The position numbers are program-made. Positions 15,001 through 18,000 of a DNA stretch of 64,000 bases are shown here, piece by piece; the stretch's first letter is position 1; every line of letters begins with the position of its first letter. Source of the stretch: Escherichia coli O127:H6 str. E2348/69 (GTDB lineage Bacteria > Pseudomonadota > Gammaproteobacteria > Enterobacterales > Enterobacteriaceae); NCBI RefSeq assembly GCF_000026545.1, contig NC_011601.1; one strand, given 5' to 3'.

Positions 15001-18000
15001 TACCGCCTCCGTCAGCAGAAGCCGGTCTGGGCACTGTGCAATGACACGGCCTGTTCTGCAGCCATGCTGCTGGCGTCGGCCTGCTCCCGACGGCTGGTTA
15101 CCCAGACATCCCGTATCGGCTCCATTGGCGTGATGATGAGCCATGTCAGCTATGCCGGTCATCTGGCGCAGGCCGGTGTGGATATCACGCTGATTTACTC
15201 AGGGGCGCACAAGGTGGATGGCAATCAGTTTGAAGCCTTACCGGCAGAGGTTCGCCAGGACATGCAGCAGCGCATTGATGCGGCGCGCCGGATGTTTGCC
15301 GAAAAAGTGGCCATGTTTACCGGTCTGTCTGTTGATGCCGTCACGGGAACAGAGGCCGCCGTTTTTGAAGGTCAGTCCGGCATTGATGCCGGGCTGGCGG
15401 ATGAATTAGTCAATGCGTCGGATGCCATCAGTGTGATGGCCACGGCGCTGAACAGTAATGTCAGAGGAGGCACTATGCCGCAATTAACTGCAACGGAAGC
15501 CGCCGCGCAGGAGAACCAGCGAGTGATGGGGATCCTGACATGCCAGGAAGCGAAAGGACGTGAACAGCTTGCCACGATGCTGGCAGGACAACAGGGCATG
15601 AGCGTTGAACAGGCCCGGGCGATTCTGGCCGCGGCGGCACCGCAGCAGCCGGTGGCATCCACGCAGAGTGAAGCCGATCGCATTATGGCGTGTGAAGAAG
15701 CGAACGGTCGTGAACAACTGGCGGCAACGCTGGCGGCGATGCCGGAGATGACGGTGGAAAAAGCCCGCCCGATCCTGGCTGCTTCACCGCAGGCGGATGC
15801 CGGACCCTCACTCCGTGATCAGATCATGGCACTGGATGAGGCAAAAGGGGCTGAGGCGCAGGCTGAACAGCTGGCTGCCTGCCCGGGAATGACTGTGGAG
15901 AGCGCCCGGGCTGTGCTGGCTGCGGGATCAGGTAAGGCAGAACCGGTCTCTGCATCCACAACCGCCCTGTTTGAACGCATCATGGCGAACCATTCACCGG
16001 CAGCGGTACAGGGTGGCGTGCCACAGACGTCAGCAGACGGTGATGCGGACGTGAAAATGCTCATGGCCATGCCATGAAGCCAGTGCTGACCATCAACAGG
16101 AGGTTTTTACAATATGGTGACGAAAACTATCACTGAACAGCGTGCGGAAGTACGTATTTTTGCCGGTAATGATCCGGCTCATACCGCCACAGGCAGCAGC
16201 GGGATTTCCTCGGCAACACCGGCACTGACGCCACTGATGCTGGATGAGGCCACCGGGAAACTGGTGGTCTGGGACGGACAAAAAGCCGGTAGTGCGGTTG
16301 GCATACTGGTACTGCCGCTTGAAGGCACAGAGACGGCGCTGACCTATTACAAGTCGGGGACCTTTGCGACGGAGGCAATCCGCTGGCCTGAAAGTGTGGA
16401 TGAACACAAAAAGGCCAACGCCTTTGCCGGCAGTGCCCTGAGTCACGCGGCGCTGCCGTAACACGTTATCAGGCCACCGCGGTGGCCTGACTGATTTCTG
16501 AATGAAAGGAACTGATTTATGGGATTGTTTACGACCCGCCAGTTACTCGGTTATACCGAACAAAAAGTGAAATTTCGTGCGCTGTTTCTGGAGCTGTTTT
16601 TCCGCCGTACGGTGAATTTCCATACCGAAGAGGTGATGCTGGACAAAATTACCGGAAAAACGCCGGTGGCGGCCTATGTTTCCCCGGTTGTTGAAGGAAA
16701 AGTGCTGCGTCATCGTGGTGGTGAAACCCGCGTGTTACGTCCGGGCTACGTCAAGCCGAAACACGAATTTAATTACCAGCAGGCGGTTGAGCGTCTTCCC
16801 GGTGAAGATCCGGCTCAGCTGAACGACCCGGCCTACCGTCGTCTGCGTATCATCACTGATAACCTCAAACAGGAAGAGCACGCCATTGTCCAGGTGGAAG
16901 AAATGCAGGCGGTGAATGCCGTGCTGTATGGCAAATACACGATGGAAGGAGACCAGTTCGAGAAAATTGAGGTCGATTTTGGCAGGTCGACGAAGAATAA
17001 CATCACTCAGGGTAGTGGTAAGGAGTGGTCAAAACAGGATCGTGACACGTTCGATCCTACACATGATCTTGACCTCTACTGCGACCAGGCCAGCGGTCTT
17101 GTGAATATTGCCATTATGGACGGTACCGTCTGGCGTCTGCTGAATGGCTTTAAATTGTTCCGCGAAAAACTGGATACCCGTCGCGGCTCTAATTCGCAAC
17201 TCGAAACAGCGGTGAAAGACCTGGGCGCGGTGGTGTCCTTCAAAGGGTATTACGGCGATCTGGCCATTGTGGTGGCAAAAACGTCTTATGTGGCAGAGGA
17301 CGGTACCGAAAAACGTTATCTGCCTGAGGGCTCGCTGGTCCTGGGGAATACGGCAGCAGAGGGCATTCGTTGCTATGGTGCCATTCAGGATGCGCAGGCG
17401 TTGTCCGAAGGTGTGGTGGCCTCTTCCCGTTATCCGAAACACTGGCTGACGGTAGGGGATCCCGCCCGTGAATTTACCATGACGCAGTCCGCGCCGCTGA
17501 TGGTGTTGCCGGACCCGGATGAGTTTGTGGTGGTACAGGTGAAATAATCCGTGAGCGGGGGCGAAATGCCCCCGTGTCTTTTTTCACAGGGGGATGATAT
17601 GGCAACGAAAGAGCAAAATCTGAAACGGCTTGATGAACTGGCCCTGATTCTGGGGCGTGAGCCGGATATATCCGGGAGTGCCGCAGAGATAGCGCAGCGG
17701 GTGGCAGAATGGGAAGAGGAAATGCAGTCATCCGGCGATGATGTACAGGTTATGAATATGGATATCCGGGAGAGGGAAAACGCGGCTCATGATGTTCGTG
17801 AGGAAACATCCGGCGCGTTAACGCGCATCAGAGTTCTGACCTGCCTCCATCTCTGTGGCGTTGATGGTGAAACGGGGGAATCCGTTGAGCTTGCGGATGT
17901 TGGTCGGGTGATTCTGATTATGTCCTCAGATGCAAAAACACACGTTGATGGTGGAATGGCTGTTTATGCGTGATTTTCAGAATGCCTTTGATGCCGCCCT

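Follow-up and report, generated by a model that had tools for sequence, protein, structure and literature searches.

Why does a prophage head gene carry three consecutive, imperfect copies of a ~140-bp stretch, and does the repetition belong to the DNA or to the protein that it encodes? The question is raised by a 64,000-nt stretch of the Escherichia coli O127:H6 str. E2348/69 chromosome (NC_011601.1; hereafter, the window), where the first-pass annotation had placed three tandem repeats at 15506-15930, in the scaffold-equivalent C-terminal part of a lambda C-type head protease gene. The annotation also held the repeats responsible for the length of the ORF and proposed that they could be a recombination hotspot or change the stoichiometry of the scaffold.

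A phage 21-type head gene with a nested scaffold

The ORFs at 12990-14582, 14572-16077, 16114-16461 and 16519-17547 correspond to phage 21 portal, gene 5, shp and gene 7, i.e. the order of portal, protease/scaffold, decoration protein and major capsid protein expected of a head operon of the phage 21/lambda type, with the GTG start of gene 5 overlapping the end of the portal gene. Gene 5 is 98.5% identical in nucleotide sequence to gene 5 of phage 21 (M81255.1, OL657228.1) and both products are 501 amino acids (aa) long: the differences amount to 22 nt and 9 aa, with one of the latter in unit 2 (V373A, see Table 1 for units) and four in the C-terminal tail, and the gene 6 start and ribosome-binding site (RBS) are the same. 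The product matches PHROG 53 ‘head maturation protease’ (E 2e-228), the Pfam S49 family PF01343, which supports the initial assignment to the lambda C-type head proteases, and, under its curated cutoff, NCBIfam SppA_dom (E 4e-31); the gp5 segment VWALCNDTACSAAMLLAS...IGSIGVMM aligns with VWALANDMNCSAGQLLAS...TGSIGVMM of lambda. Judged by these similarities, the gene is that of phage 21 gp5/gp6: a lambda C/Nu3-type S49 prohead protease, predicted to be proteolytic, with a nested scaffold.

An AGGAGG sequence is located 4 nt upstream of the predicted gene 6 ATG at 15475. GGAGG and ATG are found at the equivalent position in Gifsy-1, phi80, N15 and lambda, and the Shine-Dalgarno-like sequences at the nested start are weaker in PhAER-1 and in the four-unit gene described below. 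The repeats are located, as the first reading had it, inside the Nu3-equivalent part of the protein, and the scaffold-region units are common to gp5 and to gp6, with gp6 arising from the predicted nested in-frame start. Antisense ORFs in the region were set aside as by-products of G+C-rich coding DNA, the + frame being backed by hundreds of homologues; Rfam searches and promoter and terminator scans of both strands of the region returned nothing above chance.

Table 1. Features of the protease/scaffold locus in window coordinates.
Feature	Position	Strand	Description	Basis
Gene 5	14572..16077	+	lambda C homologue; S49 prohead protease plus scaffold region	ORF, GTG start
Peptidase_S49 domain	15007..15450	+	aa 146-293	Pfam PF01343, E 7.3e-35, 120.7 bits (cutoff 24.9)
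Shine-Dalgarno of gene 6	15463..15470	+	AGAGGAGG	read from sequence; RBS annotated likewise in M81255.1 and OL657228.1
Gene 6	15475..16077	+	Nu3 equivalent; in-frame, 200-aa scaffold, starts MPQLTATE	CDS in M81255.1 (5475-6077) and OL657228.1
Unit 1	15514..15645	+	aa 315-358; long form with NQRVMGIL N-terminal helix	unit HMM, 74.6 bits
Linker 1	15646..15672	+	aa 359-367, QPVASTQSE; length and sequence variable	alignment; pLDDT <50
Unit 2	15673..15792	+	aa 368-407	unit HMM, 81.4 bits
Linker 2	15793..15813	+	aa 408-414, ADAGPSL	alignment
Unit 3	15814..15933	+	aa 415-454; GAE instead of consensus GRE	unit HMM, 74.9 bits
C-terminal tail	15934..16074	+	aa 455-501; conserved helix TALFERIMANHS, terminal motif KMLMAMP	alignments
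Tri1 box	15542-15645	+	falls in unit 1	M81255.1 5542-5645
Tri box	15682-15792	+	falls in unit 2	M81255.1 5682-5792
Tri3 box	15823-15936	+	overlaps unit 3	M81255.1 5823-5936

Three units where lambda has one

The unit HMM places three consecutive units within a few bases of the originally proposed boundaries, and the consensus given at the time (IMxCxEAxGREQLAxxLAxxxGMxVExARxILAA) is correct. The units are 40-44 aa long and start 150 and 141 nt apart. Local BLOSUM62 scores are 101 for units 1 and 2 (z 15.8), 97 for units 2 and 3 (z 14.2) and 87 for units 1 and 3 (z 11.9), and these were equalled in 0/2000 composition-preserving shuffles; moreover, three stretches were picked up independently by the PHROG scaffold/Nu3 profiles 8399 and 8940. 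We are all but certain that the feature is a triplication, in a scaffold region of the phage 21 type, of a three-helix module of ~40 residues. The apparent start of a further unit, ‘ERIMAN’ at aa 470, did not reach significance (z -0.5 to 1.3) and was discarded as a fourth copy. The tail is homologous to that of lambda (TALDRLMQG...DLLNTPV), and AlphaFold puts helices with low pLDDT at gp6 residues 161-173 and 191-196.

Lambda C/Nu3, N15 gp5/gp6 and phi80 gp5 have the same S49 protease with a nested scaffold and are homologous in the N-terminal, unit and tail regions, but they possess one unit, as compared to three in the window, and are shorter (439-447 versus 501 aa). As compared to lambda C (439 aa), the window’s protein is 7 aa shorter in the N-terminal part, 36 aa shorter in the linker, 99 aa longer in the unit block and 6 aa longer in the tail, adding up to +62 aa; the repeats do, therefore, explain the additional ORF length, with the block’s 99 aa contained within a smaller net gain. 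The 36 aa are those by which lambda’s low-complexity linker upstream of the unit exceeds that of the window, and in lambda, phi80, N15 and an Aeromonas phage alike the single unit follows a longer disordered linker. Unit 1 of the window is orthologous to the single lambda unit RIMGILNCEEAHGREEQARVLAETPGMTVKTARRILAAAP (63% identity); it is closest to the first units of other phages, and first units are orthologous across phages.

The repeat is in the protein, not in the DNA

The codon-aligned unit cores are 58-67% identical in nucleotides (background 28 +/- 5%): identity between units is 36-39% at the third codon positions, which are saturated, and 67-82% at the first and second, and the amino acid identity is 55-61%. 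The longest exact word common to the DNA copies is 8-9 nt. Tandem Repeats Finder (TRF), applied to 14000-17500 with a minimum score of 30, found no tandem repeat, since the DNA copies are too diverged, and a seed-based repeat finder returned only one 12-nt family at the expected spacing. The copies do not, therefore, form a DNA tandem repeat in the sense of a minisatellite-type array (~70% identity or more); the repeat is a protein-level, ancient triplication under purifying selection. The idea that the copies reflect a tandem repeat of the DNA, faulty assembly or mere chance similarity has the regular 141-150 nt spacing in its favour and nothing else, and we consider it refuted: the TRF null result, the level of nucleotide identity and the shortness of the exact words argue against the DNA repeat, and protein z-scores of 12-16 against chance. 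Collapse or expansion during assembly was dismissed as well, since the architecture is identical in M81255.1, a record from 1993, in OL657228.1 and across 1863 complete genomes of E. coli.

Roughly one in three complete E. coli genomes has the phage 21-type gene, and of the genomes with this type 1863/1869 retain at least 80% of the region. With this retention, and with shared words as short as those above, the proposed recombination hotspot is a weak claim: while the first-pass interpretation holds for the type of gene, the location of the repeats, their consensus and the extra length, this last point finds little support, and an altered scaffold stoichiometry is speculative. We did detect rare in-frame variants, namely a two-unit form with a hybrid of units 1 and 2, a 19-aa deletion inside unit 2 and the four-unit gene. 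The variants in which unit 2 is partly or wholly deleted may mean that not every unit is essential, or that the prophages in question are defective.

The triplication is real, common and already known: a GenBank annotation of 1993 lists it under the name of Tri boxes in phage 21. The record M81255.1 (‘Bacteriophage 21 head gene operon’) is collinear with the window (98.5% identity), its coordinates being those of the window minus 10000, and its repeat_regions Tri1 box, Tri box and Tri3 box, which it labels ‘function unknown; putative’, are the same feature as our units: the unit HMM places the units over the annotated positions in gene 6. Literature searches returned no paper discussing the scaffold repeat of the phage 21 type. 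The Tri-box annotation is said to originate from the work of Smith and Feiss in 1993 (Gene 126:1-7).

Unit copy number varies from one to four

Copy numbers were taken from complete genomes, because the first homologue search gave mostly fragments. Gifsy-1 STM2605, a lambda gpC homologue of 498 aa from a Salmonella prophage, has three units, as in the window; its scaffold region is 53.5% identical to that of the window, and its unit 2 is 80% identical to the window’s unit 2. Four units are found in an E. coli prophage gene product of 538 aa (e.g. WP_096934546.1 in STEC309), encoded in ~104 of the complete E. coli genomes; the 82-90% identity among its units 2-4 suggests that they were amplified within this lineage. 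In spite of copy numbers between 1 and 4, the length of the major capsid protein stays at 341-342 aa throughout. The capsid proteins of Gifsy-1 and of the four-unit lineage are 84-86% identical to gp7 of the window, whereas that of lambda is only 61% identical; capsid proteins of the three- and four-unit lineages are 82-86% identical among themselves and 59-61% identical to lambda gpE.

The unit profile matches at least 524 clusters (50% identity) among 1.84 billion proteins. In most full-length matches the unit is found ~80-100 aa from the C terminus of a 410-600 aa protein, usually as a single copy, and the unit-bearing matches examined are mostly S49 prohead protease/scaffold proteins. Stand-alone unit proteins that lack the protease domain also exist, one of them encoded directly upstream of a gpD-like gene. 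On one long contig the unit travels with an entire lambda-like module (terminase, portal, S49 protease, gpD-like and gpE-like genes); as the whole head module travels together, co-occurrence is uninformative as to the partner of the unit.

Predicted fold and conservation

AlphaFold, given a single unit (unit 2) with 133 unit sequences, predicts three helices (pLDDT 84.9, pTM 0.62), and in the prediction for the whole of gp6 the units have a pLDDT of 75-85 (~80 for the unit 1 helices) and the overall pTM is 0.28. These models predict a gp6 that resembles beads on a string, with independently folding three-helix mini-domains connected by flexible linkers. In a 16-sequence alignment the majority-residue fraction is 0.72-0.83 for the units, 0.53-0.55 for the tail and 0.27-0.40 for the linkers, the linker values being those of columns with many gaps (49% of cells in linker 1, fraction 0.27; 32% in linker 2, fraction 0.40). 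The unit is the best-conserved element of the lambda-type scaffolds. The same fold is also predicted for S49 proteases from Salmonella phage 37 and from a Synechococcus virus (query-normalised TM-score 0.77-0.79).

Pfam contains no family for the query unit and none matching more than 8 of the 133 units, with all of these matches weak; NCBIfam has no family for gp6, and the only matches come from uncurated PHROG families (53, 1999, 8399, 8940 and 17040). A helix-hairpin-helix match (HhH, PF00633) at aa 427-450, in unit 3, was discarded since it is under the cutoff (E 0.094). Searching the PDB by sequence with gp6 gave only a chance match (E 1.3), and Foldseek with the whole of gp6 found nothing in the PDB with E <3.8. 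In P22 and herpesvirus the coat-binding element is located at the extreme C terminus of the scaffold. The unit is not so placed, nor is it similar to the solved P22 domain, and we have rejected its classification as a P22-type coat-binding helix-turn-helix.

Discussion

What could a triplicated unit do in a scaffold? Most probably the unit has a function, as the protein-interacting part of the internal scaffold. Of its two candidate direct partners, the capsid protein and further scaffold chains, we only tentatively name the former, although the locus as a whole is, on balance, best explained by a triplicated interaction module with units docking on the gp7 lattice. Since gp5 and gp6 have it in common, the unit would direct the protease as well as the scaffold into the prohead, which is how other nested protease/scaffold systems work. 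Docking of the units would take place on the inside of the gp7 capsid-protein lattice, a repetitive surface; with three of them per chain gp6 would be multivalent, replacing the long disordered linker of lambda, and the scaffold would be degraded by gp5 after assembly. In herpesvirus UL26/UL26.5 and phage P2 gpO, a C-terminal region common to protease and scaffold targets the two to the procapsid interior, where the protease later removes the scaffold; these protease families differ from S49 and are unrelated in sequence. We know of no repeated module in the UL26/UL26.5 or P2 gpO scaffolds.

Two-hybrid and genetic data in lambda document Nu3-E, Nu3-Nu3, Nu3-C and Nu3-B interactions, with the two-hybrid evidence for Nu3-E pertaining to whole proteins (PMC3224144). 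The scaffolds of P22, phi29, SPP1, 80alpha and herpesviruses contact the coat protein through helical C-terminal modules; like the unit, the P22 helix-turn-helix and its phi29, SPP1, 80alpha and herpesvirus counterparts are small helical elements of the C-terminal part, in a scaffold that is otherwise largely disordered (PMC11565965). The conserved 47-aa tail that follows the last unit counts against capsid docking by the units, as the tail may be the capsid binder instead and the unit may have another role. In phage MD8, a scaffold fused to the capsid protein resembles the scaffold domain of lambda in all but its final 40 residues (PMC8508860), and the lack of an equivalent of these residues in the fusion fits such a role for the tail.

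The MD8 fusion also speaks for a less probable, though serious, alternative: the unit is a self-association module of the scaffold and the tail binds the capsid, with the three units cross-linking chains or mimicking a Nu3-type oligomer. The Nu3-Nu3 interaction in lambda (PMC3224144) agrees with it, as does the comparison with P22, herpesvirus and 80alpha, where it is C-terminal helical segments that bind coat (PMC11565965), given that here a tail helix and a terminal motif come after the units. However, AlphaFold left the three units of gp6 unpacked against each other (pTM 0.28; a weak argument, since the alignment was shallow), conservation is lower in the tail than in the units, and a defined oligomer would be expected to poorly tolerate one to four copies alongside capsid proteins of constant 341-342 aa length.

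It is improbable that the units instead have the portal (gp4) or the S49 protease domain as their partner, recruiting the scaffold to the preconnector or presenting it as a substrate without contacting the shell, even if Nu3-B and C-Nu3 interactions exist in lambda and Nu3 is needed for the incorporation of B (PMC3224144). GenBank names gp5 and gp6 ‘head-tail preconnector’ proteins and the preponderance of S49 prohead proteases among the unit-bearing matches examined points the same way, but there are the stand-alone unit proteins that lack a protease domain, including the one encoded upstream of a gpD-like gene. Furthermore, the copies of a scaffolding protein in a prohead, and those of lambda Nu3 in particular, generally outnumber the 12 portal subunits by far, which argues against the portal as the partner. 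More improbable still is that the extra units are neutral filler, i.e. a tolerated internal duplication lengthening a largely disordered scaffold. While lambda works with one unit, and some genomes have only two units or the 19-aa deletion in unit 2, neutrality is at odds with the purifying selection on units 2 and 3 (saturated third positions at 55-61% amino acid identity), with the 80% identity of unit 2 to its Gifsy-1 counterpart, with units much more conserved than linkers and with the retention of the region in 1863/1869 genomes.

A broader reading, in which the Tri unit is an unnamed, widespread ‘scaffold bead’ domain with a copy number of 1-4 acting as a dial of scaffold valency, strikes us as rather unlikely. 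If it were true, one three-unit gp6 chain would fill the shell or scaffold sites of three single-unit lambda Nu3 chains, and the scaffold-to-capsid-protein stoichiometry would shift with capsid geometry unchanged. The repeat is in any case a genuine part of a very common prophage head gene, and neither an assembly problem nor recombination-prone DNA, and its natural one-, two-, three- and four-unit variants provide a ready series for studying scaffold valency and capsid assembly.

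Identification of the repeat as the Tri boxes of phage 21

The 501-aa ORF that carries the repeat matches phage 21 gene 5 over its full length at 98.5% nucleotide identity, and the N-terminal part of its product, gp5, is a Peptidase_S49 domain (E 7e-35). In GenBank record M81255.1, gene 6 is annotated inside it in the same frame (record 5475-6077) and is given a separate RBS; the corresponding ATG at window position 15475 is preceded by AGGAGG, 4 nt upstream. In OL657228.1 the products of the gene pair are named capsid protease/scaffolding protein and scaffolding protein. Since the gene matches phage 21 gene 5/6 and M81255.1 marks 'Tri boxes' inside gene 6, the repeat in the window is the triplicated Tri-box unit of the phage 21 scaffold, which has been annotated already.

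The translated ORF closes with three similar segments, ...ENQRVMGILTCQEAKGREQLATMLAGQQGMSVEQARAILAAAAPQ, ...ADRIMACEEANGREQLAATLAAMPEMTVEKARPILAASPQ and ...RDQIMALDEAKGAEAQAEQLAACPGMTVESARAVLAAGSG. Pairwise local alignment scores between these units are 87-101, as compared to 25-27 ± 5 for shuffled sequences (z 11.9-15.8), and none of 2000 shuffles equalled the observed scores. The PHROG profiles for scaffold and for Nu3 each hit three stretches. The first-pass annotation had described three repeats at 15506-15930, a largely correct description; in agreement with it, the units lie at 15514-15933 according to an HMM trained on them. The results exclude an explanation by a DNA repeat, by an artefact or by chance. 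A candidate fourth unit starting 'ERIMAN' was rejected, its similarity being not significant.

Coordinates of the repeat units, their gene and copy-number variants (window coordinates unless a record or locus is named; M81255.1 coordinates equal window coordinates minus 10000)
Feature	Location	Strand	Residues	Remarks
501-aa ORF	14572-16077	+		GTG start; upstream 530-aa ORF, downstream 115-aa and 342-aa ORFs
Unit 1	15514-15645	+	315-358	HMM built from units
Unit 2	15673-15792	+	368-407	HMM built from units
Unit 3	15814-15933	+	415-454	HMM built from units
'Tri1 box'	M81255.1 5542-5645			repeat_region inside gene 6; 'function unknown; putative'
'Tri box'	M81255.1 5682-5792			repeat_region inside gene 6; 'function unknown; putative'
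'Tri3 box'	M81255.1 5823-5936			repeat_region inside gene 6; 'function unknown; putative'
Four-unit gene	L012 628-2244			E. coli STEC309, NZ_CP041435.1
482-aa variant	L011 373-1821			E. coli SCU-482, NZ_CP053247.1 (complete genome); 19-aa in-frame deletion inside unit 2

OL657228.1 also lists two 'CII binding sites' on the minus strand inside the gene (window about 15480-15493 and about 15714-15727, the second overlapping unit 2); annotated by the pattern ttgynnnnnnttgy alone, they are probably chance matches. On both strands of the region, Rfam gave no hit, and promoter-like and terminator-like sites were not in excess. Collinearity of the window with M81255.1 holds at an offset of exactly +10000, and that with the complete phage 21 genome at +10166. 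The phage's left cohesive end is therefore expected near window 10167, and the late and lysis genes upstream of it, in prophage or other circularly permuted order.

Divergence of the units at the DNA level

Tandem Repeats Finder reported no tandem repeat. Codon-aligned unit cores share 58-67% nucleotide identity (background 28 ± 5%), with first and second codon positions 67-82% identical and third positions only 36-39%, and the longest exact word common to two units is 8-9 nt. Taken together, these sequence comparisons indicate an old duplication maintained by protein-level selection. With DNA copies this diverged, the repeat cannot have caused assembly collapse, a concern of the first-pass annotation, and offers little for homologous recombination to act on; the suggestion of a recombination hotspot thus finds little support. 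That the triplication could alter scaffold stoichiometry, as the first-pass annotation also proposed, is speculative.

Relatives in lambda and other phages

Gifsy-1 (498 aa) has three units, like the window gene, whereas lambda C (439 aa, unit at aa 358-400), phi80 and N15 (447 aa each) and Aeromonas phage PhAER-1 (440 aa) have only one, which in all four follows a long low-complexity linker with a high content of S, T, A and Q. Relative to lambda C, the N-terminal part is 7 residues shorter, the pre-unit linker 36 shorter, the unit block 99 longer and the tail 6 longer (net +62 aa), so the two extra units do account for the greater ORF length, as had been proposed. The nearest relatives of first units are other phages' first units and lambda's single unit, the nearest relative of window unit 2 is Gifsy-1 unit 2 (80% identity), and three initial residues are absent from all extra units. 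It therefore appears that the array arose before E. coli phage 21 and Salmonella Gifsy-1 separated; a single shortened duplicate is the probable ancestor of the extra units.

At lambda C codon 309, GGAGG precedes an ATG ('ctcaGGAGGgcgaATG', MTKETQ...; lambda locus L003 about 1329-1345, NC_001416 nt about 5328-5344) at exactly the position of the phage 21 and N15 gene 6 starts. The RefSeq nu3 start (nt 5132, codon 239) lacks an upstream Shine-Dalgarno sequence, and so the 201-aa RefSeq CDS may be annotated about 70 codons too long, the conserved start giving 131 aa.

Distribution and copy-number variants

The phage 21-type scaffold region is present in 1869 of 5426 complete E. coli genomes, 1863 of which keep at least 80% of it. 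A copy in E. coli O145 RM9872 does not differ from the window within the scaffold region (100% identity). It lies in a degraded lambdoid prophage adjoining the bio operon (L013, NZ_CP028379.1 840112-880789), with IS insertions, truncated tail genes and the type III effector genes nleH, cif and espJ; as the window runs into intact-looking downstream head/tail ORFs, the two are probably different prophage copies.

Copy-number variants exist and are uncommon. A 538-aa four-unit gene has a collinear match in about 104 of the 5426 genomes; its units 2-4 are 82-90% identical among themselves in protein and 78-80% in DNA, which looks like lineage-specific amplification of the unit. The 19-aa deletion of the 482-aa variant recurs in database cluster P0011 (53 members), a partial entry (P0020) is a clean unit 1/unit 2 hybrid with two units only, and further in-frame deletions occur among partial entries. 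Among the three- and four-unit lineages, major capsid proteins share 82-86% identity with one another and 59-61% with lambda gpE; all are 341-342 aa long.

Among 1.84 billion representative proteins, the unit profile matches 524 clusters at E ≤ 1e-3, many of them short fragments; most full-length hits are proteins of 410-600 aa with one copy located some 80-100 aa before the C terminus. In a single long contig, the unit-bearing S49 gene forms part of a complete lambda-like head module (terminase, gpW, portal, S49, gpD-like and gpE-like genes). Small stand-alone proteins with one or two units and no protease domain (P0207, L009 80-595; P0134; P0225) may represent scaffold genes in their own right, or gene calls made from a nested start on a short contig; the N-terminal region of P0207 is very acidic, and the P0207 gene is directly upstream of a gpD-like (HDPD) gene.

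Predicted structure and possible role of the unit

AlphaFold, run on the scaffold gp6 with 16 homologues, gave three sets of three short helices (pLDDT 75-82), with linkers and tail at low confidence; with a pTM of 0.28, the prediction does not fix how the units are arranged. For one unit on its own, modelled with 133 homologous units, pLDDT was 84.9 and pTM 0.62, with helices at residues 4-9, 18-25 and 32-41. The near-invariant residues of the 133-unit alignment (I8, E13, A14, G16, R17, A21, L24, A25, A35, L39) correspond to the hydrophobic core and a conserved charged loop, EAKGRE. One core position (alignment A3 column 16) is Cys in 67/133 units and Leu in 57/133, and is probably a buried hydrophobic position; in the window it is Cys in units 1 (15541-15543) and 2 (15691-15693) and Leu in unit 3. 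Among 16 three-unit scaffolds, conservation is 0.72-0.83 in units versus 0.27-0.40 in linkers. A conserved tail beyond the units (15955-16074, gp5 aa 462-501) comprises a helix, TALFERIM (AFDxFM in other homologues, TALDRLM in lambda), and a terminal hydrophobic motif, KMLMAMP (LLMSIPG in other homologues, DLLNTPV in lambda), and is a candidate capsid-binding or cleavage element.

The gene is a nested protease/scaffold gene whose module is widely conserved, with natural copy numbers from 1 to 4, and computation predicts three modules that fold independently, under selection, on flexible linkers; that the extra units are neutral filler is less likely. The unit is probably a structured interaction module of the internal scaffold and, being common to gp5 and gp6, would bring both protease and scaffold into the prohead. 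Lambda interactions Nu3-E, Nu3-Nu3, Nu3-C and Nu3-B have been listed without domain mapping (PMC3224144), and coat protein is bound by helical C-terminal modules in other phages and herpesviruses (PMC11565965). We tentatively prefer docking of the units on the repetitive lattice of the major capsid protein gp7, because a repetitive partner would easily tolerate 1 to 4 beads per chain. In the main rival, which we consider rather unlikely, the unit serves to associate scaffold with scaffold, and the capsid protein is bound by the conserved C-terminal tail; this agrees with the analogy to other scaffolds and with a published remark that a capsid-fused scaffold has no equivalent of lambda's last 40 residues (PMC8508860). 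Binding of the units to portal or protease, the Nu3-B and Nu3-C pairs of lambda, is less likely. The feature is real, ancient, common and ordinary, and had been annotated before.
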